From contig JAEOTC010000154.1 of NCBI GenBank assembly GCA_016840035.1, forward strand, positions 1 through 64,000: a stretch of DNA of 64,000 bases, in the 5' to 3' direction. Positions within the stretch are counted from its first letter, which is position 1. The number at the start of each line of letters is the position of its first letter. A model generated the notes under the pieces. That model ran no database searches and was not told the origin of the DNA. It worked only from the letters and a program-made list of their open reading frames with translations. Below are positions 1 through 20,836 of this stretch, piece by piece. This DNA is from Candidatus Hodarchaeota archaeon (GTDB lineage: Archaea; Asgardarchaeota; Heimdallarchaeia; Hodarchaeales; Hodarchaeaceae). Made by a program: the position numbers and the translations under genes.

Positions 1-986
1 CCATTTTCTGCTTCGTCTACATACATTATTCGTCCTTTAATGAAATAAGCCCCCATATCTTTTGCCTGTTGATAGAATTCTTCGAAGCCTTTTCCTTGTG
101 CTCGGATATCTATATAGAAAGAAAATACATCGGCTAGTGGTAGGGCACCTAGTATCAATTGAGACTGTTTGATTGAGTACATACAACAAATTTGAGAACA
201 TAGTTCATTTCCAACAGTTTTATCACGACTTCCTACACAGTAAAGATAGGCAATTTTCCCTGGCTCCTTCCCATCTGACGGGCGTAATACTGCATTATAA
301 GGTCTAGTTGGAGCTAATAAACGATCCATTTGCATAGCCGTTATGATATTCTTACTTTGTCCAAATCCAAATTCTGGTTTTAATGTGGCATCAAATAATT
401 CAAATCCAGTTGCAAGTAAGACTGATTTGACACGGACATTCTTAATAACAGGCTTTTGAAGGAAATTGATCGCGGAGGTTGGACATACTTTTTCACATTG
501 ACCACAAAATATACAATTTTCGATATCGATCACTGATTTCTTTGGGACTGCAATATCAAAGGCGATATACACTGCTTTCCTTCCCCTCATATGATATTGA
601 AATTCATCACTAACTATTACAGGACATTCCATCTCGCAGAGTGAACAACCTGTACAATCATCCCATTCGACATATTTTGGTTTTTGAATAATTTTTCCCC
701 GAAAATCGGCTTCATCATGTTTGACGACTTCTTCAATTTCAGAGTAAGCCGAAAGTGTAATATTTGGGTGATATACAGCACTTGCCATTTTTGGAGTCGC
801 AATACAAGCCGAACAATCAAGAGTAGGGAAAACTTTACTTAATTGTGCCATTATTCCTCCAACAGTTGGGGATTTATCCACAAGTAAGACATTTCGACCT
901 GCATCACCTAATGTGAGGGCTGCTTCTATTCCAGCAATTCCTGCTCCAATAATCAATGTATCATAATCTTCACAATCTTCATTCAT
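1..986 (-). CDS. hdrA: Heterodisulfide reductase subunit A-like FAD/4Fe-4S protein (runs off the window's left edge)
   Basis: Absent from the ORF track; hand-translated from ATG at 986: MNEDCEDYDTLIIGAGIAGIEAAL..., KVFPTLDCSAC, CTGCSLCEMECP, CIFCGQCEKVCP, CVGSRD..CSQICCMYSIK, FYIDIRAQGKGFEEFY. Open to the window edge. Confidence 0.93.
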   Translation of the reverse strand, partial: MNEDCEDYDTLIIGAGIAGIEAALTLGDAGRNVLLVDKSPTVGGIMAQLSKVFPTLDCSACIATPKMASAVYHPNITLSAYSEIEEVVKHDEADFRGKIIQKPKYVEWDDCTGCSLCEMECPVIVSDEFQYHMRGRKAVYIAFDIAVPKKSVIDIENCIFCGQCEKVCPTSAINFLQKPVIKNVRVKSVLLATGFELFDATLKPEFGFGQSKNIITAMQMDRLLAPTRPYNAVLRPSDGKEPGKIAYLYCVGSRDKTVGNELCSQICCMYSIKQSQLILGALPLADVFSFYIDIRAQGKGFEEFYQQAKDMGAYFIKGRIMYVDEAEN

Positions 987-997
987 AACAGCTACTC

Positions 998-1405
998 CTA
1001 AGTAGTAGATAATTCCTGTAATTTTTCAGAAAAGGTTTTAACATGATTTAAAAATGGTTCAACACAGACAGAGCATATTGCTGCCATTTTCAATCTATTC
1101 ACATCAATTTCATGACTTTCTAAAAGTTCAACTGCCTCACGTACTCGATCAGAAGTTTTTTGAGGACATTCCTCTGTAAAAGGACAATCTCCCCCATCTG
1201 CGGTGATGAATACACCATCAAAACCACTCTGAAGTGCAAGGAGAACATAATCGGCTCTTACCATACTCGAACATGGAACCCGAATTATTGAAGTTGAAGG
1301 AGAATAATGCTTGTGCAATAATCCAGTCTGATCAACAGCTGGATCAGAGATTAAAGTTGTTGTAAATATAAGAATTTTGGGTTTTACTTTCTCACTACTG
1401 GTCAT
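998..1405 (-). CDS. MvhD/FlpD-like iron-sulfur subunit, atypical Cys pattern
   Basis: KPKILIF...IIRVPCSSMV...GFDGVF...NRLK pattern parallels MvhD; sits directly upstream of hdrA. Confidence 0.8.
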   Translation of the reverse strand: MTSSEKVKPKILIFTTTLISDPAVDQTGLLHKHYSPSTSIIRVPCSSMVRADYVLLALQSGFDGVFITADGGDCPFTEECPQKTSDRVREAVELLESHEIDVNRLKMAAICSVCVEPFLNHVKTFSEKLQELSTT

Positions 1406-1473
1406 CTACATCACATAAATCGTCTAATAAGAGAAACTTTGACTCTTTCTAAATTTTCTTTGGATTTAATAAT

Positions 1474-1506
1474 AAAAAAAGAAAGGGGAAGGTAACCACC
1501 TCTTTC
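1474..1506 (-). terminator. Imperfect hairpin plus T-tract after dsrE-tusA
   Basis: Minus strand reads GAAAGAGG-TGGTTACCTT-CCCCTTTC-TTTTTTT. Confidence 0.5.
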
Positions 1507-1517
1507 GTTAAATATAA

Positions 1518-1766
1518 TCAACGTTTTCGTTTAACAAATATCTTGAAGTAACCCTTGTCTTCAACGTCACCTAAATATTCATGGCCAATCTTTTTACACC
1601 ATAGAGGGATATCTCTTTTTGTACCTGCATCTGCAGACCAAACTTCAAGAACACCATCCATAGGAACCTTTGTCATCGCTTTTTTTGCAGCTAATAAAGG
1701 GCCTGGACAACTCTCAGCGCGCGCATCAACCAAGTGGTCTGATTTTATATTATCTACATCTGACAT
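1518..1766 (-). CDS. tusA: TusA/SirA-family sulfur carrier
   Basis: DARAESCPGPLL motif, ~82 aa. Start moved to ATG 1766 (MSDVDN) to avoid overlap with dsrE. Confidence 0.9.
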   Translation of the reverse strand: MSDVDNIKSDHLVDARAESCPGPLLAAKKAMTKVPMDGVLEVWSADAGTKRDIPLWCKKIGHEYLGDVEDKGYFKIFVKRKR

Positions 1767-1794
1767 TTTTATCACCATTTCAATTACTTTGTAT

Positions 1795-2220
1795 TCAAAT
1801 AAAGTAAGTTGCTTTTGATTGTGTACTGGTCCATACGATTTCTCCAGCACCAACAATATCATCGACGAATTCTAAATTCTCTAAATCGGCGCTCCATGCT
1901 TTTCCACAAGCAGCGCAAACATAAATCTTTACTTGACCCATTTCTTTTGCTTGTTTGATCATTTCGTACCAAGGAGAAATTCCACCTTTCATAATAAGAT
2001 CTTTGAACTTCTCATCGGTATATTCGAGATGTTCACTTAACGTGTTATCTTTTCCAATTACATCCTTTTTAAAGGCATAAGTTCCCCATAGCATAAGATA
2101 TATGTCAACAGAATAATCCATCGCTATAGCAGCATTCGTCAAAATCGCCATACCAATTAGTCGATCTATTGTTCCAGAAAATACGACCATAGTTATCTTT
2201 TCTTCTTCTTCTGACTCCAT
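1795..2220 (-). CDS. DsrE/DsrF/DrsH-like (DsrE2-type) sulfurtransferase
   Basis: ITMVVFSGTIDRL...YLMLWG...KIYVCAAC...DDIVGAG; adjacent to tusA. Confidence 0.85.
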   Translation of the reverse strand: MESEEEEKITMVVFSGTIDRLIGMAILTNAAIAMDYSVDIYLMLWGTYAFKKDVIGKDNTLSEHLEYTDEKFKDLIMKGGISPWYEMIKQAKEMGQVKIYVCAACGKAWSADLENLEFVDDIVGAGEIVWTSTQSKATYFI

Positions 2221-2450
2221 TTTCTACAACTCTTATCGGTTTAACAAGAAAAAATACTTTGTTTCAGAAAATTACGTTGTTAATTATGCGCTAATAACTC
2301 TCCGTTTTTAACTTTTCGTATAAAGTCACAATATAATTACTTGTGGATGAATTAAGAGTAGCTACTACTCATTTCATCTATACTAGTAGTAAGTATCATA
2401 AAAGAATAATCTATTGTGAATAATTATGTAAAATTGAAGACGGAAGGTTT

Positions 2451-2662: not shown

Positions 2663-2896
2663 ATGGTTGATATTGACATGACATTGGACTGCCAAGGTTT
2701 ATCTTGTCCAATGCCGATCGTAAAATTAAACGCAACAATCAAGAAGATAGAAGTAGGACAGGTTCTAGAGATGATTGGAACTGATCCTGGATCAAAGAAG
2801 GACGTACCTTTGTGGTGCAAACGAAAAGGCAATGAATTACTAGAGACAATCGAAGAAGGCGGTATTTTCAGATTTATTATCCAACGTAAAAAATGA
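2663..2896 (+). CDS. tusA: TusA/YeeD-family sulfur carrier
   Basis: LDCQGLSCPMPIV motif; D-P-G-S-x-x-D. Confidence 0.92.
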   Translation: MVDIDMTLDCQGLSCPMPIVKLNATIKKIEVGQVLEMIGTDPGSKKDVPLWCKRKGNELLETIEEGGIFRFIIQRKK

Positions 2897-2905: not shown

Positions 2906-4156
2906 ATGTCAGAAGATGGAATGTTTTCAGAAGTAAAGGAAGTTCTGTTTGGCGATTCATGGAAGATGTGGGTCGGGGCAATTGTACTATCTTTTTTGAG
3001 TATATGCCTCTTCATTATCATATCCCCATGGGGTGCCTCTGGCGGTGTTCTTAACTGGGGTGAACAAATAATTAAACCCATAATGAACGAAACTGCTACA
3101 GAAATTACCAAACATCGATACGCAATGCTGAATATTATGATCGTGATCGGTGCGCTTTCGAGTGCATTGATGGCGAAACAATTTGCGATTCGAATTCCTC
3201 CACTCGGTGAACTCGTAAAAGGGTTAGTCGGTGGTGTATTAATTGGAGTTGGAGCCATCATTGGAAGCTCCTGTACTCTAGGTGGTTTCTACAGTGGATG
3301 GCCAGCCATGTCATTTGGTGCCTTTATCTTTACCCTTGGGTTAGCAGTTGGAACTTTCATTGCTGTTCTCTACCTAATGTGGGAAGCAGATAAATACCCA
3401 GGGATTAGTGGTGGTGCAACTAAAACTTTCTTAGGTGCTGCTGGTTGGCAACCAATTGTTGGAGTTTTAGTCTTCATCGTGGGACTGCTAATGCTATTCT
3501 TATTCCCCACAACCCCTGAAAAGCTTCTTGAAGGGTCAGCAGTGATGTTAGGTTTTGCATTCATTGGTTTACTGATCGGCTGGGTACTCCAACGATCACG
3601 ATTCTGCATTGTCAGAGCCTTGAGAGAACCTTTTATGACTGGTGAAACCTCTGCAGCTAAAGCAGTCATGGTAGGAATTATTGTAGGTCTAATTGGGTTT
3701 GTTACCATTAAGTTCTTTGGAGTATTCTTCCCCTTAAGCTTTGGAGGTACTGGAACAACTGGTTATGCTCAATCCATGTTTGTTTTTGGTAATGTTTGGA
3801 TCTCTGGTTTACTTGGTGGTATCATTTTCGGAATTGGTATGACTATTGCAGGTGGATGCGTTGTCGGTTCTCTTTGGAGATCAGGCGAAGGCCAAGTAAA
3901 ACTTTGGTTCTCTGTCATTGGAATGACTATCGCTATGCCCCTAACAAACTCCTTTAAGAACCAATTCTTAGAGTGGACTGGTGGACAAGCCAATATTACT
4001 GATGCAATGTACCTTCCTACTATTATTGGTGACTTTGTTGATAATGATCTCTTCCTTAGTTACCTTGGTGGTGTTCTTTTCGTTTTAGTTGCTATTGCTA
4101 TCTGGTATGTAATTATCAAATGGAACGAAAAATCAGGTAAATTGTCCCGAATGTAA
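2906..4156 (+). CDS. YeeE/YedE (TsuA/SoxT-like) sulfur-compound transporter
   Basis: Multi-TM and Gly-rich, with three family Cys motifs GSSCTLGG, RSRFCIV and AGGCVVGSLW; follows tusA by 9 bp. Confidence 0.88.
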   Translation: MSEDGMFSEVKEVLFGDSWKMWVGAIVLSFLSICLFIIISPWGASGGVLNWGEQIIKPIMNETATEITKHRYAMLNIMIVIGALSSALMAKQFAIRIPPLGELVKGLVGGVLIGVGAIIGSSCTLGGFYSGWPAMSFGAFIFTLGLAVGTFIAVLYLMWEADKYPGISGGATKTFLGAAGWQPIVGVLVFIVGLLMLFLFPTTPEKLLEGSAVMLGFAFIGLLIGWVLQRSRFCIVRALREPFMTGETSAAKAVMVGIIVGLIGFVTIKFFGVFFPLSFGGTGTTGYAQSMFVFGNVWISGLLGGIIFGIGMTIAGGCVVGSLWRSGEGQVKLWFSVIGMTIAMPLTNSFKNQFLEWTGGQANITDAMYLPTIIGDFVDNDLFLSYLGGVLFVLVAIAIWYVIIKWNEKSGKLSRM

Positions 4157-4180: not shown

Positions 4181-4216
4181 GAAAGGAGGGTTTCAATCCT
4201 CCTTTCACCTTTTTTT
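4181..4216 (+). terminator. Stem-loop plus T-tract terminator
   Basis: GAAAGGAGG-N8-CCTCCTTTC then ACCTTTTTTT. Confidence 0.65.
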
Positions 4217-4335: not shown

Positions 4336-5121
4336 ATGGACAACTTTAGTTGCAGTCTTGATCATCCGATATTCGAAATCCTTTCGAATAAAACTCGTTT
4401 AGAAATTCTACGGATGATTGCATGTGAACAAAATTATGGGAGTAGAATTGCATCAATTCTAAATATCTCTGCTCCAGCTATCCATCGTCATCTGAAATTT
4501 CTCTCTCAAGAAATTAAAGATGATAATATGGAGGATTTTAGTTATATAAAACCGTCATATACAACAAGCGAAAGTTATTCTGGACATAAAGGTGCCGAAG
4601 CCACAGTTTATGAAATTGGAACTAAAATGTATTTTTCCTTTGCGTTATACCCAAATTTTATTCAATCTCATGCCTTTCTTGTAGGCGCTGAAGCATCTTT
4701 AAATGAAAATACTTCCAATAACCTCGATGATGACATACAGGGACGTGAGAAACATAAAAACCTAAGTTCTAATAGAAGTATAGAAGAATATTCCAAGCTT
4801 TTCAACAAAATACAGGAAAAAAACGAAAAAATCAGAGATCTTGAAACCCAGATAATGAATATTCTTGAAGAAAAAAACGACTTAATGAAAGATATCGATT
4901 CCTCCATCCAGAAAAGTTCCTCACTTTCATTCGACGAACGAGTTAGCCTACGTCTGATGGCGTGTCAAGGACCAGTATGCATTCCCAACTTACCTGAACT
5001 TCTTCGTCAGGATGTTGAAGTTACAAAGAAAAATCTTATCAACCTTAAACTCAGAGGTTGGTTCTCAAAATTTGAAGATGAAGTTCAGAATGGAATCAAA
5101 AATATCCCAGAGGTTGAATAG
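4336..5121 (+). CDS. ArsR-family HTH regulator with coiled-coil C-terminal part
   Basis: IFEILSNKTRLEILRMI...IASILNISAPAIHRHLKFL. Confidence 0.8.
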   Translation: MDNFSCSLDHPIFEILSNKTRLEILRMIACEQNYGSRIASILNISAPAIHRHLKFLSQEIKDDNMEDFSYIKPSYTTSESYSGHKGAEATVYEIGTKMYFSFALYPNFIQSHAFLVGAEASLNENTSNNLDDDIQGREKHKNLSSNRSIEEYSKLFNKIQEKNEKIRDLETQIMNILEEKNDLMKDIDSSIQKSSSLSFDERVSLRLMACQGPVCIPNLPELLRQDVEVTKKNLINLKLRGWFSKFEDEVQNGIKNIPEVE

Positions 5122-5165: not shown

Positions 5166-6038
5166 TTAAGCAGTTAGCTTATCTAATACTTCTTGGACCT
5201 TAATTGTGTGCATCTTGAAGCCAGCACTGAAATCAAGACCTATTGCAAGTCCTAAAAGTTCAGCATAGAAGAAAACGGGAAGAGTAGTCTTTTCAAAATG
5301 CTTAGTCATAAGTCTTTGACCGATATCATATGATACATAACAGGTGGGACAGACAGTTACAAGTGCATCTGCATTTGCTAACTCAGCACCTACGATTTTC
5401 TCATGAGCAATCTTGAGAGCTGCATCCATATCTGTTGTTCGCGTACCAGCCCCACAACAGGCCAGTTTGTTAAGATATGGAACTGTTTCAGCACCTAATG
5501 CCTCTAATAAGTGATCCAATTTTTGAGGAAGTTCAGGATTATCAACCTGCATGATATCTGTGGGTTTTAGGAAATGACAACCATTGTGGGAAGCTATTTT
5601 AATCCCTGAAAGAGGATTAGTAACTTTTTGTGCAATCTTGTCAATACCAATCTCAGTGTATAGAAATTCGGCAAAATGGTTAATTTTTATTGTTCCTTTA
5701 AATTCCCGATCTACATCCTTTAAATGCTCATTCACCTTAGATTTAAGGTCCGGGTCATTTTTCAAGTGAGTATTTATAATTTTTAGCGATTCAAAACACC
5801 CACTACAAGCTGTAAGAATGTCCAGACCTTCTTCTTCAGCTAAACATAGATTTCGTGCTCCTAAAGTATGCCAAGCCACACTATCGAATGCTTGAACACC
5901 ACCAGGATCTGGACAACAAGCAAACGGTAAGTCTACAAGTTCTACGTCGAATATTGGTAAAGTTTTACGCAAAGAGGTTTCAATGAACGGTACACGATAG
6001 GGAATAGTACATCCAACAAAAAAAGCATATTTAGACAT
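5166..6038 (-). CDS. hdrB: Heterodisulfide reductase subunit B
   Basis: FFVGC, CCPDP, ACSGCF, HNGCH, CCGAG, VCPTCY (two CCG domains). Confidence 0.93.
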   Translation of the reverse strand: MSKYAFFVGCTIPYRVPFIETSLRKTLPIFDVELVDLPFACCPDPGGVQAFDSVAWHTLGARNLCLAEEEGLDILTACSGCFESLKIINTHLKNDPDLKSKVNEHLKDVDREFKGTIKINHFAEFLYTEIGIDKIAQKVTNPLSGIKIASHNGCHFLKPTDIMQVDNPELPQKLDHLLEALGAETVPYLNKLACCGAGTRTTDMDAALKIAHEKIVGAELANADALVTVCPTCYVSYDIGQRLMTKHFEKTTLPVFFYAELLGLAIGLDFSAGFKMHTIKVQEVLDKLTA

Positions 6039-6535
6039 TATTTTGCATCCTCCTTTAGAGCATTGAGTTTAGCTATCACTCCTGTAACTTCCATAAGCTT
6101 TTGAATTTCAGTCATATCAGGAGGAGGTATTTCTGGCAGTTCAAGCTTGTCCCTTTTCCTCAGAGCTGATGTTGATTTTGCTGCAGTAATCCCAGTTTCC
6201 AATATTGCAGTCATTTCAGTGATAATCCCAGGTGGAGCATTTTTGATTTTCACAGCGATATTTTTCATGTCGTTTATAACATGACAAATATCAATCCCTT
6301 GTGGACAACGGGTACTGCAAGTATAGCATCCTGTGCAGTACCAAATTTGTTGTTCATCGAATATTTCCGCAGAAATGTCCCCTGCAAGTAATTTTTCCAT
6401 AACTCGACGGGGATTAAAACTTGAGTACTGCTTAAACACAGGACAACCACCAGCGCAAGTTCCACATTGGTAACACAGCTTTACTTTGTCATAGAGGTCT
6501 TTAAATTCTTCTTTGAGTTCAGTTGTTAAAGTCAT
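6038..6535 (-). CDS. hdrC: Heterodisulfide reductase subunit C
   Basis: CYQCGTCAGGCP and CTGCYTCSTRCPQG. Confidence 0.93.
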   Translation of the reverse strand: MTLTTELKEEFKDLYDKVKLCYQCGTCAGGCPVFKQYSSFNPRRVMEKLLAGDISAEIFDEQQIWYCTGCYTCSTRCPQGIDICHVINDMKNIAVKIKNAPPGIITEMTAILETGITAAKSTSALRKRDKLELPEIPPPDMTEIQKLMEVTGVIAKLNALKEDAK

Positions 6536-6565: not shown

Positions 6566-8986
6566 TTACCGCTCCAACTTTCCTAGTTCTTCGAGTCGTT
6601 TAGCCATCTTTCTTGCAGTTTCAACAAATCGATTTGAGCTCTCTGTATAAACTGTTTCTTTTTCCAATCTGTCTGGGTTGATTCCACTATATTCCAGCAT
6701 CTGTTTCATAAGATGTACTCGAATTGTAGAAGCTTTTGAACCTGAATCATAATGACATTTATCCTCAAAGCAACCCAATACAATAATACCATCGGCTCCT
6801 TTTTCAAATGTCTTCTGAATTAACCTCGCAGAAACATTCCCAGTACATTGAACAGGTAAAATTCGAACATTATCAGGATACTTAAATTCAGGATCCGTTA
6901 AACACCCTTGACCTATGAAATCTGTAGATGCGTAGGCACATTCCCAACAGGCCAACGTGATAATTATCGGATCTGGAGTTTCTCCGTTATCATAAAGGAG
7001 GCCCTCGACTTGGCTCAGAATTTGATCCTCTCTATAGTAATCAATGTCTATACACGCTGCAGGACAGCTTGATACACATTGACCGCATCCTAAACAAGAT
7101 AAAGGATTCACCTGCATCTTGACCCCAGGATTTTCTACAGGTACGACATCTATGGCTCCAAATGGACATGCTCCTACACAAATCTCACATAACGTACAAC
7201 GATCGTTATCGATCTCAGCAATTGGAAATCTCTTCTCAACCGAACCTTTTGTTAGGAGTAGATCCAAATGACTCGCTGCATGTGCAGCCTTTGTTATAGT
7301 TGTAGGAATATCAGCGGGAGCTATTGCGGTTCCAGCTACAAAAATCCCAGCTTGATTGGTCTCAGATGTTCTAAATTTCGAATAGAGACCTTTGAAGTAG
7401 CCAGTTACATCAACATTTACGTTTAACAGTTCGGCTATTTTCTGGACTCCTGATGAAGGAACCATACTCATAGATAGTGCAACCATATCCGTTTTTAGAG
7501 TCAACATCGTATCAGCTTGAGAATCCTCAACCTGTACATAGAGGTTTGTTCCATCAGTCTCCACTTCAGCAGGCCGTCCTCGGATGAATTTTATTCCAAG
7601 ATCACGCGCTTTATTATAAAATTCTTCATAATTTGCACCTACGGCACGAATATCTATGTAACAGCAATAAACATCAATTTCAGGATTTTTCTCTTTAATC
7701 GTTATTGCATGTTTTATTCCAATCATACAACAAATATTACTACACCAGATATTGTAATTTTGAGAGCGAGATCCAACACAATTGATTATTACAAGTCTTT
7801 TTACAGGATCACCATTTTTCTTTTGTAATTTACCATGATATGGACCTGTTAAAGCTAATAGACGAGCTAATTCGGACTGTGTGATGACGTTCTCGTATCC
7901 TGGTACTCCATAGTGATATTCTTCCACAATTGCTGGGTCAAATTCTTGAAAGCCAGTTGCTAAGATAATTCCACCAGCTGTTACCGTAGTTGTCGTCTCT
8001 CGTTCGTTCAGATCGATAGCATTGACAGGACAAACTTTAACGCACTCTGTACATCCTTCAGGACATTCATCACGATTAACAACATATTTTGTAGGGGAAC
8101 AAGTAATATTGGGAAGATATATTGCTTTTCTTGTACTTAAACCTAGATTCATCTCATCTGGTTTTTCCACTGGACATGCCTGACTACATAAATCACAATT
8201 TACACATCTATCCATTTTTACATATGTTGGTTGAGATTTGATTGTTACATTGTAACCCCCTAACCTACCTGTAACATTTTCTACCTCAGATCTTATGTAT
8301 AAATTAATTTTCGGATGCAAGTCAAAACCTGACCGATAGAAACAACGTCTAACACTTGATTGATGAACTCCTCTGACACCAGTACTGGTTTGACATGCCG
8401 CACAGTCTTCACTCGGGAAAAAAGCACCTAATTTTACTGCGTTTCCACCGATGTAAGGTTGTCGGTCAATTATATGCACTTCATGTCCTTTTTCAGCTAA
8501 ATCCTGAGCAGCTTGAAGTCCTGCGGGTCCTGCTCCGATTATAACTGCTGATTGGCTTATATTAATTTTCTGTACTTCTACAGGTGCTTGATATCCTGCT
8601 CTATTATGTGCTCCTAGTAAAACCGCCTTGGCTTTTTTAGTTGCTGAATCTTTATCTGAACTAACCCATCCTACGTGTTCACGTAAATTCGCACCGGTTA
8701 CCTGGTAAGGGGAAATATTCAATCCTTTTAATTCCTGTTCAAATAGATAACCTGCTGTTTTAGGGGTACATCCACCAAAAACAATTGCATCAGGTTGTTC
8801 TCTACCTACAACTTCCTTCAGGTAATTTTTACCCTCTTCAGAGCAAAGACTCTCGTGATATACACAGAAATTATCATTCTCAGCCGTCTTTTCCTCGATG
8901 AATGCTTTGAGATTGTCCCAATCAATGTTTCTGATTGATCCACCACAATTACATAAAAAAGTCCCAATTTTCATTGCTTTTGCCAC
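6566..8986 (-). CDS. hdrA: HdrA-MvhD fusion protein
   Basis: GTG start. LCNCG N-domain, GAGPAG FAD motif, ferredoxin motifs, CVGSR..CSNICC; C-terminal MvhD domain ACWECAY..QCTG..GCFEDKCHY. Confidence 0.9.
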   Translation of the reverse strand: MAKAMKIGTFLCNCGGSIRNIDWDNLKAFIEEKTAENDNFCVYHESLCSEEGKNYLKEVVGREQPDAIVFGGCTPKTAGYLFEQELKGLNISPYQVTGANLREHVGWVSSDKDSATKKAKAVLLGAHNRAGYQAPVEVQKINISQSAVIIGAGPAGLQAAQDLAEKGHEVHIIDRQPYIGGNAVKLGAFFPSEDCAACQTSTGVRGVHQSSVRRCFYRSGFDLHPKINLYIRSEVENVTGRLGGYNVTIKSQPTYVKMDRCVNCDLCSQACPVEKPDEMNLGLSTRKAIYLPNITCSPTKYVVNRDECPEGCTECVKVCPVNAIDLNERETTTTVTAGGIILATGFQEFDPAIVEEYHYGVPGYENVITQSELARLLALTGPYHGKLQKKNGDPVKRLVIINCVGSRSQNYNIWCSNICCMIGIKHAITIKEKNPEIDVYCCYIDIRAVGANYEEFYNKARDLGIKFIRGRPAEVETDGTNLYVQVEDSQADTMLTLKTDMVALSMSMVPSSGVQKIAELLNVNVDVTGYFKGLYSKFRTSETNQAGIFVAGTAIAPADIPTTITKAAHAASHLDLLLTKGSVEKRFPIAEIDNDRCTLCEICVGACPFGAIDVVPVENPGVKMQVNPLSCLGCGQCVSSCPAACIDIDYYREDQILSQVEGLLYDNGETPDPIIITLACWECAYASTDFIGQGCLTDPEFKYPDNVRILPVQCTGNVSARLIQKTFEKGADGIIVLGCFEDKCHYDSGSKASTIRVHLMKQMLEYSGINPDRLEKETVYTESSNRFVETARKMAKRLEELGKLER

Positions 8987-13139: not shown

Positions 13140-13393
13140 TATTCAGATTAATCGTCTGTTGTTTATGAAATCCTGCTTTTTATAAAAGTGAAAAACCTTA
13201 AGTACAAGTAATAATTGTAATTACAGGTTTCAATGAAATTCGAATGAGTTGATTTGAAACAGATTTTCTTGAGACTGGAGATTCTAAAAGTAAAGGAATA
13301 TCCTTTATTCTAGCCTATCTAGCCTCGGGATAAAAAAAATTAAGAGGGGCGAATTAGATCGTCTTTCTAACATAAAAAGGAGGAAATATACGA

Positions 13394-13921
13394 ATGCGAA
13401 AGAAGCTACTTGTTTTTGTATTAATGTTTTCAGTGCTAACATTGGTTCCAATAGTTTCAGTATCAGCTGAGAAACCTCATTTGATAGGTTCAATGACATT
13501 ATCATTATTACCTGAGTTTGATTTACCCCCTTCATATCCTGAAGGTTCGTTTGTTACTTGGCAAGGAACAATATATTTCGAAGGAATTGATGAATATGAA
13601 ATGCGGTTCATCTTGATTGGAGCAGGGATTCCACGAGAAGGACCAACAGGAAAAGCTGGTCACTTTGGAGAAATCTGGGAAATATACGATGGAAGTCTTT
13701 GCAATATGATCCTATGGGGTTATGACAAAGGTGTAACTAACCAGAAAAAGGATTGGACTCATTGGCCGTATCGAATGAACGGACATGTGGAAGGTGCTGC
13801 TGATACAGCTGGTTGGACAGAATACCTTGGTAGAAATGTTCACATGAGTGGAATAATTACGTGGCTTGGCCAACCATATTCCCCTCCAGCCATTGCACCA
13901 GGAGAATTCCGAATAAACTAG
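13394..13921 (+). CDS. Secreted hypothetical protein
   Basis: AGGAGG RBS; signal peptide MRKKLLVFVLMFSVLTLVPIVSVSA. Confidence 0.7.
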   Translation: MRKKLLVFVLMFSVLTLVPIVSVSAEKPHLIGSMTLSLLPEFDLPPSYPEGSFVTWQGTIYFEGIDEYEMRFILIGAGIPREGPTGKAGHFGEIWEIYDGSLCNMILWGYDKGVTNQKKDWTHWPYRMNGHVEGAADTAGWTEYLGRNVHMSGIITWLGQPYSPPAIAPGEFRIN

Positions 13922-13986: not shown

Positions 13987-14427
13987 TTAGGGTTTTAAGG
14001 GCCCTAAGCTCCTGATTTTTTCTGTAAATTCAGTCATAATTTGAGCAAAGCGTTTTCCCTCACTCGCAGAAATCCATTCAAGTCGGAACCGTTCAACTTT
14101 AAATCCAAGAACTTGCATAGCTTCTACCATTTTATCTATGCGTTCTTTTGCTCTTAGATTTCCTTCTAAATAGTGACAATCCCCAGGATGGCATCCGGCA
14201 ACCATGACACCATCAGCACCTTTCAAGAAGGCTTTCATAACGAAAGCTGGATCTACTCTACCAGAACACATCACACGCACTATTCGTACATTACTCGGAT
14301 ATTTTAATCGTGAAACACCGGCTAAATCCGCACCTGCGTATGAACACCAATTACAGGCAAACACTAAAATTGTTGGTTCAAAATTTTCTATTTGAGGTTT
14401 AGTTTCTACTTGTGTCACTTTTGTCAT
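13987..14427 (-). CDS. mvhD: Hydrogenase/Hdr iron-sulfur subunit MvhD
   Basis: Canonical FACNWCSYAGAD, RVMCSGRVD, GCHPGDCHY, WISASEG. Confidence 0.95.
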   Translation of the reverse strand: MTKVTQVETKPQIENFEPTILVFACNWCSYAGADLAGVSRLKYPSNVRIVRVMCSGRVDPAFVMKAFLKGADGVMVAGCHPGDCHYLEGNLRAKERIDKMVEAMQVLGFKVERFRLEWISASEGKRFAQIMTEFTEKIRSLGPLKP

Positions 14428-14437: not shown

Positions 14438-17400
14438 TTAAGGTGCCTCCACTGAGGGTGTATCAGCTTCCACTTTTTCTGTTAGTTCTGGTCTAGTCAG
14501 GATAGATTCGAATTGAGATTCGATGAGTTTGTCTGGGAAGTGTTTAATTGTGATTGCAGATACTGGACATGTTACCACACAGGTACCACACCCTTTACAG
14601 ACCCCTTCATTAACCACAGCTTTAACCATTTTTAGGTCTTGAGTTTCCATTCTAATAGTCTTTGTCTCAAGTTCTATTGCCTTGAAAGGACATACTTGTT
14701 CACAACGTCCGCATCCACGGCAAATGTCTTGATTAACATTTGCAATTGCTCCTTCTGATAGAATGAATCCTTTTGCAAGGAGAGCCATAACTCTGACTGC
14801 TGCTCCGCTACCCTGGTATATTGCTTCAGTGCTGAATTTTGGAAATTGACTTGTTCCTGCTAAGAAGATTCCATCTGTGGCAAAATCTATTGGACGAAGT
14901 TTTACGTGTGCTTCTAAGAAAAAGTTATCAGCACCTCGTGCACATTTGAACATCTGCCCCAATTCCTCATTTGGTTTAGGTACTAGGGGAACACTTAGGA
15001 CTACTAAATCAGGAGTGACTTGTAGATTGACACCTAGCATTTCATCAAAAACAGTTACGGTTCCATTTGAATCGACACTTGGTTCATTATCATCTGTATA
15101 ACGGATGAAAACTGTCCCAAGCTCTCTTGCTTTTAGATATAATTCCTCTAAGTCTCCATATGTTCTAATATCCTTATACAGAACAAACACATTAGCGTTG
15201 GGATTGCGTTCTTTAATACGAATGCTGTTCTTTATGGCTGCAGTACAACAAATCCTTGAACAATACGTACGTGGTGCTTCTTCCTCTCGAGAACCCACAC
15301 ATTGAATCATGACCACGTTTTGAGGGTCTAGTTCATCGAATCGCTCTTCTAACTCTCTTTGAGTAACCACATTCGAAGCGTTTCCATAATTATAATATCC
15401 GTTCGGTGTGAAGGGTTCTGCTCCTGTGGCAAGAATCACGGCTCCAAACTGTATTTCTTCTCCTTGTACTACACCTTTAAATTTTCCAACAGCCCCACTG
15501 AGCTCTTCCAGTTCGGAATTAGTGTAAACTGTGATTTCAGGCTCATTTTCGATCTCTTTTCGCATTTGAGCCACAACTTCAGGGCCCTTTAGTCCGTTAT
15601 GTAATTCGGGAATCTTGAGAAGTTCGCCCCCTAGTTGATCTTCTTTTTCTATCAAGTAGACAGGATAGCCTGCTCTTGCCAGATCAAGGGCGCTTGTCAT
15701 TCCAGCAACTCCACCACCAATTACAAGAGCTTTTTTGATAATGGGGATCTTTTCTTTGAATAAAGGTTCAAGACCACAGGCACGGGTTATTGCACCACGA
15801 ATTAGATCTTTAGCTTTCTCGTTTGCTTCATCCTCCTGATGAGGGTGAACCCATGAAACCTGTTCTCGGAAATTCACTAGATCAAACAAAAATTCGTTTA
15901 ACCCCGCTTCCTGGAGTGTACTTCTAAACAGAGGTTCGTGAGTACGAGGAGTACATGAGGCAACTATTACTCGATTTAATTTATGCTCTTTGATTGCATC
16001 CTTAATCACAACTTGGGAATCCGCTGCGCATGCATACATTGGATCACTGGCGTACACAACATTATCGAACTGTTTAGAGTATTCTGCAACTTCAGCACAA
16101 TCTACAACAGAACCGATATTATGACCACAGTGACATACGAGCACTCCAATACGAGGTTCATCAGCAGGACTGACCTTGATTTCACGAGGCAGTTTTTTCT
16201 CCTCGATTTCTGTTCCTCTAACATCTTTCAGTAAAATAGATGCTTTTGCTGCCGCTCCACTTGCCTCAGCAACAGTATCAGGAATATCCTTTGGACTTGA
16301 GGCAACTCCACATACATAAACTCCTTCTTGATTGGTCTCCAAAGGTTTCAGAGGATCTGTGACAACAAAACCTGTGTCCGATAACTCTAGTTTAAGATCT
16401 CTCTTTAAAAATTCTGCATGTGAAGAAGGATCCAATCCTGTGGATAAAACCACCATATCCATTTCCTCGGTAGAAATTCCTGGTGTACCTTTGAAGTCTT
16501 CGTATTTGACAATTAAATTCCTGTTTTCAGGATTTTCTCTAATTTCACTAATTCTTGATTTAATAAAATGGATGTTAAATTCATTAATAGCCCGTTGGTA
16601 GAACTCTTCAAATCCTTTACCGAATGCACGGATGTCCATGTAATAAATATATGCTTCTACATCGGGATCATGTTCTTTAGCCATTATCGCCTCCTTTATG
16701 GCATACATACAACAGGCAGCAGAGCAATAATTTCTATTTAATTGGGGATTTCGTGAACCCACACACTGCAAAAACGCAATCTTTTTGGGATGTTTTTGGT
16801 CAGAAGGACGAATAACCTCACCTCCGGTTGGACCAGAGGCATTAAGTAACCGTTCAAATTGTAATGTTGTTACTACATTTGGGAACTGACCATAATGAAG
16901 ACTTGAAATTTCCTTAGCATCAAAAGGATCAAAACCAGTGGTTACAATGACCGCACCGACATTAATCTCCTTGACTTCATCCTTTTGTTCATAATTTATA
17001 GCTCCAGGACCGCATTTTTTCTTACAGATTCCACATTTCCCCTTCTTGAGGTATGCACAATTATGAGCTTGAATATATGCGACTTTTGGTACTGCTTGAG
17101 GAAACGGAATAGAAACTGTTTTTCTCCCTGGTTTATCTCGACCTTTTTTGTCCTTTCTCATTAAATGCTCATTGAATTCGTCATCCACCCAGTAAGGGCA
17201 GTTCTCCTCACACTCTCCGCATCCTGTACACTTATCCTCGTCAACATAGCGAGCTTTCTTAAGATATTTTAGAGTAAAGTTTCCAGGAGATCCTGAAAGG
17301 TCCTGTGGGTCACAGTAGGTTAATAACCGAATATTCGGGTGTCGTTGTACATCGACCAATTTTGGTCCAAGGATACACATGGCACAGTCTAAAGTCGGAA

Positions 17401-17554
17401 AGGTCTTATCAAGCTGGACCATTCTTCCCCCAATTGAAGGATTGCTCTCAATAAGATGAACAAGAAATCCTTGATCAGCCATATCTAAACTCGCTTGTAT
17501 TCCGGCAATTCCTCCTCCGATTACAGCTACAGATCCTAACATTGTTTCAGCCAT
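14438..17554 (-). CDS. hdrA: Large two-FAD-module HdrA-like protein
   Basis: Two GGGxAG FAD motifs, two CVGSR..C..CC motifs, internal VCHCG domain, terminal ferredoxin domain. Start moved to ATG 17554 (MAETML), behind a GAGG RBS. Confidence 0.92.
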   Translation of the reverse strand: MAETMLGSVAVIGGGIAGIQASLDMADQGFLVHLIESNPSIGGRMVQLDKTFPTLDCAMCILGPKLVDVQRHPNIRLLTYCDPQDLSGSPGNFTLKYLKKARYVDEDKCTGCGECEENCPYWVDDEFNEHLMRKDKKGRDKPGRKTVSIPFPQAVPKVAYIQAHNCAYLKKGKCGICKKKCGPGAINYEQKDEVKEINVGAVIVTTGFDPFDAKEISSLHYGQFPNVVTTLQFERLLNASGPTGGEVIRPSDQKHPKKIAFLQCVGSRNPQLNRNYCSAACCMYAIKEAIMAKEHDPDVEAYIYYMDIRAFGKGFEEFYQRAINEFNIHFIKSRISEIRENPENRNLIVKYEDFKGTPGISTEEMDMVVLSTGLDPSSHAEFLKRDLKLELSDTGFVVTDPLKPLETNQEGVYVCGVASSPKDIPDTVAEASGAAAKASILLKDVRGTEIEEKKLPREIKVSPADEPRIGVLVCHCGHNIGSVVDCAEVAEYSKQFDNVVYASDPMYACAADSQVVIKDAIKEHKLNRVIVASCTPRTHEPLFRSTLQEAGLNEFLFDLVNFREQVSWVHPHQEDEANEKAKDLIRGAITRACGLEPLFKEKIPIIKKALVIGGGVAGMTSALDLARAGYPVYLIEKEDQLGGELLKIPELHNGLKGPEVVAQMRKEIENEPEITVYTNSELEELSGAVGKFKGVVQGEEIQFGAVILATGAEPFTPNGYYNYGNASNVVTQRELEERFDELDPQNVVMIQCVGSREEEAPRTYCSRICCTAAIKNSIRIKERNPNANVFVLYKDIRTYGDLEELYLKARELGTVFIRYTDDNEPSVDSNGTVTVFDEMLGVNLQVTPDLVVLSVPLVPKPNEELGQMFKCARGADNFFLEAHVKLRPIDFATDGIFLAGTSQFPKFSTEAIYQGSGAAVRVMALLAKGFILSEGAIANVNQDICRGCGRCEQVCPFKAIELETKTIRMETQDLKMVKAVVNEGVCKGCGTCVVTCPVSAITIKHFPDKLIESQFESILTRPELTEKVEADTPSVEAP

Positions 17555-17573
17555 TGTTTCTTCCTCGCATTCA

Positions 17574-18707
17574 CTACTTTGGACTCGACCTCTCATCTAC
17601 AATCATACCAAGCTCTTTCACTTTTATTTTAAAGTCGTGCTGAGGTTTTTTATCCTCTAAAACACAGTTTAAGTGGGCATAGCATTTTGAACATGCCACA
17701 GTAAGCGTTCCTTCTTCCCCAACGGCTCGTGTTGCATCCTCTAGCTTCCGTAACATAATTGATCTAGAGACATCATCACACTTTAACCATGCAGACACTC
17801 CACAACACTTTGAAAATTGTTTATTCAATGAAATTTCTTTAATTGATGCACCTGTTGCCTCTAGGACCTTTCTTGGACTTTCATACTCATTCATGAATCG
17901 TCCTAATCTGCATGGATCGTGATAAGTAAGAGTTGTAGCTTCTGCATTGAAATCCAACTTGTCTTTATTTTCCTCTACAAAATGAGAAATGTGTTGAATG
18001 TCAACACCCTCTAAATTATATAAGTCCATAAAGGAGTAATAGCATTCAGCACATGAAACCACAAGTGTTGAAATACCAGAATCCTTGATTACTTGTGTAT
18101 TAAATTCTCTAACCTGTTCATAGGCATCCATATCACCTGTCCAGTAAGCATCATGGCCACAGCACTTTAGAGATAATAGATTGGGATTAACACCTATTTT
18201 ATTCATTACATTAATTGCACTCTGACCTATTTCGTGAAAACTCGTTTCCTTTAAATCTAGGAATTTATCATATAGATCAATGCATCCTGGGAAATAAGCA
18301 ACAGAGGATTCGGGATTTAACTTTCCTTCATACTCAAATTTCATCCCAGAATCAGTTATTTCATTCATGAACACTTGCATAATATTGAAGATATTGTGAT
18401 GTGCAAAGAGATCTTCATTGACACCTTGTTGTTCCCGTTTTAGTCGTATAAATTCCGGAAAATCGATTTGATGTGGACATACTTCTAAGCAGAGGCCACA
18501 GGTTAAACATGAAGTTAAATCATCTTCAGATACTCCATAATCGTATAAATATTTGTGGATGATTTTCCTTGGATTAAATTTAGAATACCTACGGACTGGA
18601 CATACACTGGTACAGGAGGAGCATTGATAACATGCCTGTAACATAGTCTTTAGGTCATCAGTTTTAATTTCTACATCGTATTGAATGGGACTTTCAGACA
18701 TTACCAT
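17574..18707 (-). CDS. HdrD-like Fe-S oxidoreductase (2x4Fe-4S plus CCG domains)
   Basis: CYQCSSCTSVCP, CLTCGLCLEVCP, CCGHD, YHDPCRLGR, CCGVSAW. Confidence 0.88.
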   Translation of the reverse strand: MVMSESPIQYDVEIKTDDLKTMLQACYQCSSCTSVCPVRRYSKFNPRKIIHKYLYDYGVSEDDLTSCLTCGLCLEVCPHQIDFPEFIRLKREQQGVNEDLFAHHNIFNIMQVFMNEITDSGMKFEYEGKLNPESSVAYFPGCIDLYDKFLDLKETSFHEIGQSAINVMNKIGVNPNLLSLKCCGHDAYWTGDMDAYEQVREFNTQVIKDSGISTLVVSCAECYYSFMDLYNLEGVDIQHISHFVEENKDKLDFNAEATTLTYHDPCRLGRFMNEYESPRKVLEATGASIKEISLNKQFSKCCGVSAWLKCDDVSRSIMLRKLEDATRAVGEEGTLTVACSKCYAHLNCVLEDKKPQHDFKIKVKELGMIVDERSSPK

Positions 18708-18719
18708 TTTCTCATCTCC

Positions 18720-19604
18720 TCATGTTTTGACAGGTTTCATCAACTTTTTCGGTGAAACATAATTTGAGCCGAGTCCTAATGACTTATAACTCAGACCCAT
18801 TCCTATTCCAAGTAATTGGCTGAAATAAAGAACAGGAATTTTAAAATCTCCTCCTCCCACCCTATCTATCGCCTGTTTCTGTTGTCCATCTAAAGCTAAG
18901 GCGCACATTTGACAAGCTACAACAATGAATTCGGCTCCGACTTCTTTAGCATTAACAACAATATTTCCAGTTAGGGTTTCTACTGTTGGTTTTGCCACTA
19001 ATAGCTGAGTTGCACCACAGCACTTAGTTTTCATAGGAAAATGTGGAGTTTCAGCCCCAACAAGGTTAATTAGCTCATCCATAAATGTAGGATTATCTGG
19101 ATCCTCAAATTGTACAATATCTCCAGGACGAACACATAAACAGCCATAATAAGAGACACCTTTCCGTCCTGCGAGAGGATTATCTGGAAGAATGTGCTCC
19201 TTAATTTTATTTAATCCAATATTATCCCGTAATAATTGAAGAAAATGAACAGGTTTCACACTTCCAGGTGTGTAATCATGTTTATCCATCAGAGAATTGA
19301 GGATATCTGCTTGTTCTTTGTCTTCTTCCATTATACGATTTACATGAATCAATTGATATGCACATGCAGGACATACGGCTGTTAACAAATCAAAATCCTG
19401 TTCTTCTGCTAGAGCCAAATTCCTTGCAACAATACCTTTTGCTGCAAGGGGATTTACAGCTTCGACTTCTAACGCTCCACAACAATTCCAATCCTTTATC
19501 TCCTTCATATCCACTCCTAATTTCTCTGCAATCTTATAGGTGGATTTATTGTATTCTTTAGCTACTTTATGGAGTGAGCATCCTGGATAATAACCGACTT
19601 TCAT
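18720..19604 (-). CDS. hdrB: Heterodisulfide reductase subunit B (second copy)
   Basis: YYPGCSL, WNCCGA, CPAC, YYGC, KCCGA, ACQMC. Confidence 0.93.
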   Translation of the reverse strand: MKVGYYPGCSLHKVAKEYNKSTYKIAEKLGVDMKEIKDWNCCGALEVEAVNPLAAKGIVARNLALAEEQDFDLLTAVCPACAYQLIHVNRIMEEDKEQADILNSLMDKHDYTPGSVKPVHFLQLLRDNIGLNKIKEHILPDNPLAGRKGVSYYGCLCVRPGDIVQFEDPDNPTFMDELINLVGAETPHFPMKTKCCGATQLLVAKPTVETLTGNIVVNAKEVGAEFIVVACQMCALALDGQQKQAIDRVGGGDFKIPVLYFSQLLGIGMGLSYKSLGLGSNYVSPKKLMKPVKT

Positions 19605-20236
19605 GCTTTGGCCTCCTTTTCATATTTCTTTGCGTTTTTGAAAATCCCTCGGACTTCCTTTCTGGCTTTAGAATTCCAAGGAGGGAAAAATTCGATTTTG
19701 AATTTCCTCAGCATCCCCAAAATCATTGAGATGTATTTAAAACCGATTAATGCTCCAAAAGGAAAACCTCTCCCATACATCATATACCGACCAATCATCT
19801 CAGGTTCCCAAGAACGACCCCAAAGCCAGACACTTTCTTTGAATCTCTTATCAAATGAATGTTTTAATTTTCCTTCCTTAGACAATGAAATACGTCTTGA
19901 TTTGTCTTTACTTTTTGTATCACGAACAGCTATTGTACGTAAAGCTTCGATAACTTCTGTAAATCTGACATTTTGCGGGCATCTATCTGTACACTCAAAA
20001 CATCCAACACATTGCCAGATAGCCTTTGATTCCAACACTTCCTTACGCATACCAACTAACACTTGTCGGATTACTTTTCTTGGATTTAGATCCAAGCCTA
20101 CATCGGTGATAGGACATGTTAAGGTACACGAAGAACATTGAAAACACTTTTTTAGATGTTCACCACCCTCCTCGGCAACGACTTCATTTTTAAAATTCAA
20201 ATCGGCAGTATTTAGATTAAAGGTCTGTATGGCCAT
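19601..20236 (-). CDS. hdrC: Heterodisulfide reductase subunit C (second copy)
   Basis: CFQCSSCTLTCP and CVGCFECTDRCPQ; start probably ATG 20236. Confidence 0.9.
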   Translation of the reverse strand: MAIQTFNLNTADLNFKNEVVAEEGGEHLKKCFQCSSCTLTCPITDVGLDLNPRKVIRQVLVGMRKEVLESKAIWQCVGCFECTDRCPQNVRFTEVIEALRTIAVRDTKSKDKSRRISLSKEGKLKHSFDKRFKESVWLWGRSWEPEMIGRYMMYGRGFPFGALIGFKYISMILGMLRKFKIEFFPPWNSKARKEVRGIFKNAKKYEKEAKA

Positions 20237-20449
20237 GAAAATCACATTTACTAGCCCTAATGCTAACTAAAGGGAACTCTACGACAAATTTGACATTAAT
20301 ATATATATATTCTTTGATAAGTGATCGTTTTGTAGCCTCTACACAATTAAAGATAACAATAGAAAAGAATTTAGGAATGAAAAAATGTTTTAAGCACTTA
20401 TTCTCTCCCCCTTTCATATACATCAGTTTTTGAAATGAAGTGAAAGATT

Positions 20450-20836
20450 ATGTCCCCCAAAGTTGATGACTCCTGCAAATACTACAAAGAACATCAATGG
20501 GTTAGAGTGGAAGATGATCGTACATGTTTGATCGGAATCTCTGACTTTGCCCAAGATTCACTAAAAGATATAGTAATGGTAGAGCTACCAGAAGTAGGTG
20601 ATACTGTTACTCAAGGTGAAGTGTTTACTTCCATCGAAAGTGTAAAAGCTGTTAGTGATGTTTTTAGTCCTGTTTCTGGTGAAATAGTTGAAGTTAATGA
20701 AGAGTTGGAAGATACACCTGAAAATTGTAATGAAGATCCATTTGGATCTTGGCTTGTAAAAGTCAAGCCGTCTAATCTTGATGGTGATCTTGCTAATCTT
20801 ATGAGCCCTGCGGAATATGAAGAATTCTGCGGATAA
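20450..20836 (+). CDS. gcvH: Glycine cleavage H-type lipoyl carrier protein
   Basis: HQWVRVE, GISDFAQ, lipoyl-Lys motif IESVKAVSDVFSPVSGEI. Confidence 0.92.
   Translation: MSPKVDDSCKYYKEHQWVRVEDDRTCLIGISDFAQDSLKDIVMVELPEVGDTVTQGEVFTSIESVKAVSDVFSPVSGEIVEVNEELEDTPENCNEDPFGSWLVKVKPSNLDGDLANLMSPAEYEEFCG

Follow-up and report, generated by a model that had tools for sequence, protein, structure and literature searches.

Organization of the region

The region described here occupies positions 1–20836 of a 64-kb window, itself the opening part of a 72,951-bp contig (C114, JAEOTC010000154.1) from a metagenome-assembled genome (MAG) of Candidatus Hodarchaeota. It carries three gene sets related to heterodisulfide reductase (Hdr) and the [NiFe] hydrogenase Mvh, together with genes for the sulfur carriers TusA and DsrE and for a YeeE-type transporter. 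The MAG is 4.3 Mb in size, consists of 293 contigs and is 87% complete with 4% contamination; all genome-wide negative results given below refer to this MAG. Genes were called by Pfam and NCBIfam scans combined with inspection of motifs and gaps. All the genes named in the first-pass annotation, which had described three Hdr sets around dsrE, two tusA genes and yeeE, could be confirmed, and the catalytic motifs are intact across all proteins checked. The part of that description which did not stand concerns the third set, which reads as a type II Qmo-like operon and not as an Hdr set. Intergenic distances within sets 1 and 2 range from -23 to +30 nt, and these two sets are therefore tight operons.

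A complete Mvh-Hdr operon

Set 1 encodes all of a group 3c-type hydrogenase together with HdrA::MvhD, HdrC and HdrB of the methanogen type. Its genes run on the minus strand from 12109 down to 5166, in the order maturation protease, mvhG, mvhA, hdrA::mvhD, hdrC and hdrB, with gaps of 2, 3, 30 and -1 nt from mvhG to hdrB.

11618–12109, minus strand: hydrogenase maturation endopeptidase, upstream of mvhG (TIGR00072, 104.6 bits, over the cut-off)
10453–11370, minus strand: MvhG, hydrogenase small subunit (NCBIfam VhuG, 263 bits)
8990–10450, minus strand: MvhA, large subunit of a group 3c-type [NiFe] hydrogenase (NCBIfam VhuA, 438 bits)
6566–8986, minus strand: full-length HdrA fused to MvhD, 806 aa (NCBIfam HdrA2, 657 bits, profile positions 1–774; FlpD, 116.8 bits, residues 675–802)
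6038–6535, minus strand: HdrC1 (TIGR03290, 104.8 bits; two CxxCxxCxxxC motifs)
5166–6038, minus strand: HdrB1, canonical type (TIGR03288, 314 bits against a cut-off of 345; two complete CCG motifs)

MvhA contains the Ni-Fe ligand motifs RMCGICHSPH and DPCFSCATH, the latter followed by a 30-aa tail, and the VhuA and VhuG scores of MvhA and MvhG are both under the equivalog cut-offs. In comparison to the methanogen MvhAGD-HdrABC complex (5ODC, 8RVU), every subunit is present in set 1 with the NiFe, CCG and Fe-S motifs intact, and the scores against the solved methanogen proteins are 263 bits for HdrB1 and about 370 bits for the HdrA core. The two differ in the fusion of MvhD to the C-terminus of HdrA in set 1 and in the neighbouring genes, which are sulfur carriers here and not methanogenesis genes. 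They also differ in the expected substrate. The first-pass annotation had reported that mcr is missing from the window; McrA could not be found even genome-wide, and neither could ComA, which makes the methanogen heterodisulfide of coenzyme M (CoM) and coenzyme B, CoM-S-S-CoB, an unlikely substrate in this organism. The genome does contain a fused, 383-aa sulfopyruvate/phosphonopyruvate-decarboxylase-like protein, ComDE-like, on contig C51 (L092, 1492–2643), with the alpha (ComD) domain over the cut-off and the beta (ComE) domain under it. This gene adjoins a carboxypeptidase gene.

Sulfur carriers and a type II Qmo-like operon

The third set runs on the minus strand from 2220 down to 3 and comprises dsrE, tusA1, mvhD3 and an HdrA-like fragment cut at the contig start. 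The dsrE and tusA1 open reading frames overlap and mvhD3 lies 11 nt from hdrA.

1795–2220, minus strand: DsrE2B-type sulfurtransferase (Pfam DsrE/DrsE_2; nearest solved relative 2QS7, E 7e-20)
1518–1862, minus strand: TusA1 sulfur carrier (Pfam TusA, 67.7 bits; CPGP active-site motif)
998–1405, minus strand: MvhD3, divergent MvhD-like protein (Pfam FlpD, 86.7 bits)
3–986, minus strand: first 328 aa of an HdrA-like flavoprotein, type II QmoA-like (NCBIfam HdrA2, 374 bits, profile positions 141–459; no HdrA N-terminal domain)

The solved protein 2QS7 has been named DsrE2B (PMC11094781), and Cys102 of the window DsrE is invariant in the alignment of its orthologues (alignment A1). Matches of TusA1 to its orthologues start at residues 32–35, and translation of TusA1 probably begins at Met29 or Met33 (position ~1778 or ~1766).

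The uninterrupted form of this operon is seen in a related genome (G012; JBHLKY010000001, a 316-kb contig), where it consists of dsrE, tusA, mvhD, hdrA_a (436 aa), hdrA_b (585 aa), a 102-aa protein and a 406-aa protein. The G012 HdrA_a is the full-length orthologue of the fragment at 3–986 and also has no HdrA N-terminal domain. The 102-aa protein (orf102) is basic and weakly helix-turn-helix (HTH)-like, of the winged (wHTH) kind, and the 406-aa protein has an HdrC-type dicluster domain at its N-terminus. QmoC-like proteins of this family score 163–175 bits against NF038018 (cut-off 300), over positions 6–358 of the 360 in the model. DNA synteny with the closest relative (G004) places the rest of the window's own operon on contig C215, in reversed orientation and across a gap of ~0.95 kb; the QmoC-like copy on that contig scores 174.5 bits and has several hydrophobic segments with His residues. 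The third set is the leading (5') portion of a type II Qmo-like operon with the order dsrE-tusA-mvhD-hdrA_a-hdrA_b-orf102-qmoC-like. A second, more divergent Qmo-like module (hdrA_b-orf102-qmoC-like, 32–46% identical) lies at the end of contig C11 (L040, 9574–11977), its upstream genes being unassembled.

Type II Qmo complexes, in which QmoA and QmoB are nearer to HdrA than to canonical Qmo, occur with or without Apr/Dsr and are of unknown function (Neukirchen et al. 2023, PMC10504309). The present operon resembles them in its two HdrA-like flavoproteins, which match HdrA2 models best and lie nearer to HdrA than to canonical QmoA/B, in its third part, which is either a QmoC-like dicluster/membrane subunit or HdrCB, both variants being found, and in sharing its MvhD subfamily with Vulcanisaeta. 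It differs in having a separate mvhD gene, whose product MvhD3 has lost three of the five cluster cysteines common to MvhD2 and the HdrA::MvhD tail, in a small wHTH-like protein that is always part of the operon, and in dsrE-tusA, always found at one end. Unlike the type I QmoABC of sulfate reducers and Chlorobi, which is linked to AprAB/Sat, it has dsrE and tusA as neighbours, and neither AprA (best score 25 bits, under the cut-off) nor Sat was found in the genome. Dissimilatory sulfate or sulfite reduction was rejected as the partner of the Qmo-like complex, since AprA, ATP sulfurylase (Sat), NIR_SIR sulfite reductase and DsrC were all not found genome-wide. With neither sulfite reductase nor ATP sulfurylase found, the organism should need a supply of reduced sulfur.

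A putative importer and its regulator

A second group of sulfur genes diverges from dsrE on the plus strand.

2221–2662, no strand: spacer between dsrE and tusA2, divergent promoter region (five GTT[GT]TTAA boxes, including the palindrome TTAACAAC-N11-GTTGTTAA)
2663–2896, plus strand: TusA2, YeeD/TsuB-like transporter partner (NCBIfam TusA, 59 bits, and YedF, 48.7 bits, both under the cut-off; CPMP motif)
2906–4156, plus strand: YeeE/YedE, TsuA-like sulfur-compound transporter, 416 aa (Pfam Sulf_transp, 132.6 bits)
4336–5121, plus strand: ArsR-family HTH regulator (Pfam HTH_5; weak SurR match, 27.6 bits)

The tusA2 gene ends 9 nt before yeeE, an arrangement that recalls the thiosulfate uptake pair YeeE(TsuA)-YeeD(TsuB) (6LEO, 8J4C), and three Cys-bearing motifs of the transporter align with the solved S. 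thermophila protein. In contrast to that pair, the window YeeE shows low similarity (43 bits) and has its halves swapped, with query residues 219–385 corresponding to chain residues 7–162 and 77–158 to 246–328, and its scores against the NCBIfam TsuA models (75 and 47 bits) are far under the cut-offs of 400 and 645. In G013, YeeE-like sequence is present in the usual, non-permuted order, as two blocks.

The best NCBIfam match of YeeE is YedE/FdhT (97.6 bits) and TusA2 also matches YedF, which could indicate selenium trafficking of the YedE/YedF type for selenoprotein Hdr or Mvh subunits; some archaea do make these subunits as selenoproteins. Alternatively, the carriers could form a Tus-type relay for tRNA thiolation. 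Both possibilities are extremely unlikely: the YedE/FdhT and YedF scores are far under their cut-offs, the genome has no SelD over the cut-off, the hdr and mvh genes are all free of in-frame stops, and a TusE/DsrC-family protein was not found in the genome. The selenium reading is further weakened, though weakly, by the failure of aragorn to find a tRNA-Sec among the only 11 tRNAs that it detected in all.

Directly 3' of yeeE, at 4181–4216, a hairpin with a perfect 11-bp stem and a T7 run behind it (fold z-score -2.7) resembles a terminator that would separate yeeE from the regulator gene. Orthologues of the ArsR-type regulator follow the Qmo-like operon in G012, G019, G004 and G020. A SurR-like redox switch was considered for this regulator and rejected, its HTH having no CxxC. 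The GTT[GT]TTAA boxes recur as a cluster at the same position in the closest relative (L033) and are absent before mvhG and hdrC2; they are a possible operator, conserved only in that relative. Three similar boxes were seen in an AT-rich stretch at 21690–21725, ~100 bp before an HTH/MetOD1 regulator gene (21822–22505). With boxes confined to the dsrE/tusA2 spacer and the region before this 21822 gene, co-regulation of the sulfur genes with hdr through a common operator is unsupported.

Conservation of the Qmo-like module with its sulfur carriers

A pattern scan with alignment A1, covering one genome per species from 185,579 species, identified the DsrE2B orthologue at 14 loci, all of them in Asgard-type MAGs (Hodarchaeota, Njordarchaeota, Heimdallarchaeum aukensis and some third-party-annotation (TPA) MAGs labelled Nitrososphaerota). 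At all loci with sufficient flank, dsrE-tusA adjoins mvhD-hdrA-hdrA-orf102, followed by either qmoC or hdrC-hdrB, so that the synteny of relatives bears out the earlier suggestion of a link between Hdr-type genes and sulfur carriers. Distribution of the DsrE2B orthologue group is patchy, as judged from a profile search of 400 Asgard genomes: within the genus, 5 of 22 genomes gave a match, in family f3 one of 31 did, and in two Njord-type families the count was 8 of 12. Outside the Asgards, the same operon is present in all four contexts of the MvhD3 family that were sampled (Vulcanisaeta sp., a Bacteroidetes MAG and two metagenome contigs with bacterial markers), and the MvhD of the identical operon in Vulcanisaeta is 53% identical. 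This bacterial spread surfaced only through the MvhD3 family and not through the DsrE2B pattern scan. The DsrE/TusA-linked Qmo-like operon is widespread, occurring in Vulcanisaeta and in bacteria as well as in four lineages of Asgards, and no functional study of it was found in the literature searched. What the window adds is that a true Mvh-Hdr operon is also located beside sulfur-carrier genes.

Conservation of the Mvh-Hdr operon with sulfur genes

Orthologues of MvhA (at least 73% identity) are present in 9 of the 22 genomes of the genus. Two arrangements that are not orthologous to each other place sulfur genes beside this operon. In the first, tusA-yeeE-arsR is located at the 3' end of the mvh-hdr operon, as seen in the window, at both G004 loci and at a G020 locus cut by its contig. 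In the second, seen in G008, G003 and G013, a cluster of tusA-dsrE2-dsrE-tusA and an SQR-like flavoprotein gene lies directly upstream of mvhG of the orthologous operon and in the same direction; the G013 locus holds, in addition, another tusA and a non-permuted YeeE-like gene. The window genome has the orthologue of this second cluster elsewhere, on contig C177 (L041, 7755–10487), where it reads tusA-dsrE2(DrsE_2)-dsrE-tusA followed by an SQR/FCSD-like flavoprotein gene. In all, Mvh-Hdr adjoins sulfur-carrier or importer genes in five genomes of the genus, besides the contig-cut G020 locus. Beyond the genus, mvhD-mvhG-mvhA(-hdrCBA) adjoins dsrE-tusA at three of four Njord-type loci (L051, L053 and L057), and one of the five Loki-type loci sampled has the order tusA-dsrE2-hdrC-hdrB-hdrA-mvhD-mvhG. 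The linkage of Mvh-Hdr to sulfur carriers is thus recurrent and has arisen in independent arrangements, and it is not universal. A presence-absence correlation of MvhA with DsrE was set aside as support, being too weak and drawn from incomplete genomes.

A soluble tandem-HdrA complex next to gcvH

The genes of set 2 are on the minus strand, from 20245 down to 13987, in the order hdrC2, hdrB2, HdrD-like, tandem hdrA and mvhD2, with gaps of -4, 12, -23 and 10 nt. A gcvH gene diverges from hdrC2.

20450–20836, plus strand: lipoyl carrier GcvH, encoded divergently from hdrC2 (149.6 bits to TIGR00527, cut-off 115.85; ESVKA with the lipoyl-Lys)
19601–20245, minus strand: HdrC2 (TIGR03290, 82.5 bits; qmoC, 77.7 bits)
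18720–19604, minus strand: HdrB2, divergent (TIGR03288, 170 bits; 146 bits to 8RVU_b; two CCG motifs)
17574–18707, minus strand: HdrD-like protein, HdrC-type dicluster domain with two CCG motifs (Pfam CCG and Fer4_8)
14438–17596, minus strand: tandem HdrA of 1052 aa, joining a QmoA-like to a QmoB-like half (GxGxxG Rossmann starts at both 27 and 627)
13987–14427, minus strand: MvhD2 (Pfam FlpD, 191 bits; five-Cys pattern kept)

In the HdrC-type domains both CxxCxxCxxxC motifs are complete. The first half of the tandem HdrA is 43.5% identical to the HdrA-like protein at 3–986, and set 2 of G014 terminates with a QmoC-like gene. Since the two halves match the HdrA type of set 3, and since this QmoC-like gene is present in G014, sets 2 and 3 are the soluble and the membrane-anchored forms of one enzyme type. 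A Promethearchaeota contig (JBHLNX010000022; L096, 11674–18882) holds an orthologue of set 2 consisting of hdrB, an HdrD-like gene (377 aa), a tandem HdrA (1034 aa) and MvhD; it carries two additional Pyr_redox_2 flavoprotein genes, and sulfur carriers are absent there. From this comparison, set 2 would seem to be an ancient Asgard module that stands by itself.

It is conceivable that the disulfide handled by set 2 is the lipoyl group of the adjacent GcvH, in which case the sulfur carriers would be unrelated to set 2. The divergent gcvH is kept beside hdrC2 in G004, and a GcvH lying inside an Hdr/hydrogenase cluster of Culexarchaeia has been proposed to have that role (PMC9723716). However, the adjacency was seen in no genome but this closest relative, no GcvH lies near the set 2 orthologue of Promethearchaeota, and the genome contains GcvT, GcvP, two further GcvH paralogues, two dihydrolipoyl dehydrogenases over the cut-off and LplA-like genes (on contigs other than C114), so that an ordinary job is available for GcvH. 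It is probably an ordinary glycine-cleavage H protein, and the lipoyl substrate is very unlikely. A role of this GcvH as LbpA is likewise unsupported, as it scores over the gcvH equivalog cut-off and its glycine-cleavage partners are in the genome.

Between the two hydrogenase/Hdr sets (12243–13921) there are a radical SAM gene (12243–13139; weak YydG-like match, no lipoyl synthase model matched) and a gene for a 175-aa protein with a signal-peptide-like start, and both are kept in G014 in reversed order. Following the island, at 23031–27420, are a CBS-domain gene and genes for 2-oxoacid:ferredoxin oxidoreductase (POR); the same CBS-POR pair follows the Qmo-like operon and its regulator in G012 (L032).

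Relation to sulfur-oxidizing Hdr systems and the oxidative direction

The first-pass annotation had drawn an analogy with the sHdr-LbpA system (Dahl laboratory; PMC6067878, PMC11094781). The two are alike in that CCG proteins are tied to TusA and a DsrE2B-type transferase, with a GcvH-family protein nearby. The analogy fails on the type of HdrA, which is long, bifurcating and provided with ferredoxin inserts and MvhD, in contrast to the short, non-bifurcating sHdrA; both HdrA and HdrB score far higher against methanogen Hdr than against sHdrA, the HdrA_a core reaching 373 bits against methanogen HdrA (5ODC_A) as compared to 124 bits against sHdrA (6TJR_A). It fails also on gene order, as hdrC1-hdrB1-hdrA-hyp-hdrC2-hdrB2 is absent and a hydrogenase is attached, and on the lipoate side, where the cluster has no dedicated LbpA with lipoate assembly genes. 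Membership in the sHdr family was therefore rejected.

An oxidative function may still be asked of these genes, in which sulfane sulfur from SQR or from import, carried by TusA/DsrE, would be oxidized by the Hdr/Qmo-like complexes, much as sHdr systems do, with electrons passing to quinone, ferredoxin or H2. This direction is encouraged by the SQR-like flavoprotein that ends the tusA-dsrE2-dsrE-tusA cluster directly upstream of mvhG in sister species, by the QmoC-like membrane subunit, which points toward the quinone pool, and by a similar Hdr-TusA-transporter cluster of Cloacimonadota that has been read as oxidative (PMC8542988); DsrE2B/TusA are also typical of archaeal sHdr clusters (PMC11094781). 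The bifurcating methanogen type of HdrA and HdrB, the absent sHdr gene order, the ordinary appearance of GcvH and the failure to find the sulfite-handling enzymes AprA, Sat and sulfite reductase in the genome all speak against it, and we regard an oxidative direction as quite unlikely.

Carrier-bound sulfur as a candidate substrate

The reading that we favour sees in the region a redox island of an Asgard archaeon that is not a methanogen, built on sulfur carriers and linked to H2 and ferredoxin; the chances of this reading seem to us about even. Similarly balanced is our judgement that carrier-bound sulfur is the substrate of at least the Hdr-type complexes encoded here; an H2-driven, reductive direction of the reaction is rated lower than this. 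In such a scheme, YeeE and TusA2 would import thiosulfate or sulfane sulfur, and the sulfur would sit as a persulfide or thiosulfonate on cysteines of DsrE2B and TusA1. The CCG (non-cubane Fe-S) sites of the HdrB/HdrD-type subunits may then cleave the carrier S-S bond with electrons travelling from H2 through MvhAG and MvhD to the HdrA flavin, most likely with co-reduction of ferredoxin, and the products would be sulfide with or without sulfite. The Qmo-like complex could link these carriers with the quinone pool. What CoM-S-S-CoB is to methanogens and the DsrC trisulfide to sulfate reducers, carrier-bound sulfur would then be here. A precedent for TusA/DsrE feeding an Hdr-like complex exists (PMC11094781).

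Carrier-bound sulfur as an Hdr/Qmo substrate has already been proposed, plausibly, in a 2025 preprint on a Loki-lineage Asgard without sulfite reductase, Nerearchaeum marumarumayae, where a group 3c hydrogenase-Hdr is suggested to reduce the sulfur of thiosulfate or sulfite through TusA/DsrE persulfides after TsuA import (bioRxiv 10.1101/2025.07.22.663070). In the retrieved passages of that preprint, the idea stands in one figure legend (a metabolic cartoon) and one paragraph, and those passages hold no gene-cluster or cross-lineage synteny evidence, whereas the genes in the window are physically clustered together with two further HdrA-type complexes. Besides this preprint, we found no paper linking TusA or DsrE to Hdr in Asgard genomes. 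The value of the present locus is the physical clustering and its recurrence across lineages.

Several observations weigh against a shared substrate. YeeE orthologues are limited to 3 of the 22 genomes of the genus, a narrow link; the stretches fetched around the Mvh-Hdr orthologues of G001 and G017 contain no sulfur genes; and none of the four HdrB1 homologues from Thor-, Odin-, Baldr- and Promethearchaeota has sulfur carriers within 9 kb. Co-occurrence is weak, with a DsrE match in seven of the nine genus genomes that have an MvhA orthologue and in seven of the 13 that have none. The T-run between tusA1 and mvhD3 and the strong hairpin after yeeE indicate that the transcripts may be separate, and the GTT[GT]TTAA boxes provide no operator shared between the promoter of the sulfur genes and those of mvh or hdr. 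In the QmoC variant a CCG site is lacking. The fused ComDE-like gene leaves CoM-type chemistry as an unlikely alternative. By textbook potentials, the couple of thiosulfate with sulfite and sulfide (~ -400 mV) is poorly suited as the high-potential partner in bifurcation from H2, while a persulfide (~ -270 mV) could act as the high-potential acceptor.

These observations could be accommodated if the two groups of genes were neighbours without shared chemistry, with Mvh-Hdr acting on some small thiol disulfide and cycling H2 in syntrophic fermentation, and the carriers and YeeE serving only the Qmo-like module, sulfur assimilation or sulfide detoxification. Reconstructions in print take Mvh-Hdr as a syntrophy hydrogenase, which is the usual Asgard reading (10.1101/2025.02.26.640444). 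Independence of the two groups is favoured by the four Asgard classes named above, whose HdrB1 homologues have no TusA, DsrE or YeeE nearby, by genomes that have Mvh-Hdr orthologues and neither the DsrE2B/Qmo operon nor YeeE, and by the missing common promoter motif, with the ComDE-like gene counted on the same side. Against it stand the two non-orthologous carrier clusters found beside the same Mvh-Hdr operon in sister species, and the repeated association in Njord-type genomes and at one Loki-type locus; we estimate chance adjacency within a few kb at ~1% per locus, given about five Hdr-type loci in 4.3 Mb. McrA, ComA and DsrC, moreover, were not found in the genome. On balance we consider such independence unlikely, though it deserves serious weight beside carrier-bound sulfur as the substrate.

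A more specific and decidedly speculative version of the carrier-bound sulfur reading, to which we attach a low probability, is that Asgards use a TusA/DsrE persulfide, or a protein heterodisulfide between TusA and DsrE, where methanogens use CoM-S-S-CoB, and that this redox couple is cycled. It would be reduced with H2 by the cytoplasmic bifurcating Mvh-Hdr, giving reduced ferredoxin, and re-formed at the membrane by the Qmo-like complex and SQR with quinone as the acceptor. If this were true, relatives of the eukaryotic ancestor would possess an H2-sulfur energy loop that runs without methanogenic cofactors.

Significance

Metabolic reconstructions in print give the Hdr substrate of non-methanogens that possess Mvh-Hdr as "an unknown disulfide" (e.g. 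PMC9723716), and these organisms include the Asgard archaea closest to eukaryotes. The locus described here and its relatives put a concrete candidate beside the enzyme genes, namely cysteine-bound sulfur on TusA/DsrE, in several independent arrangements. As TusA and DsrE are small, soluble and easily loaded with sulfur in vitro, the idea is directly testable. The locus also adds context to the widespread Qmo-like/TusA/DsrE operon, and it bears on hydrogen-sulfur syntrophy models of eukaryogenesis.

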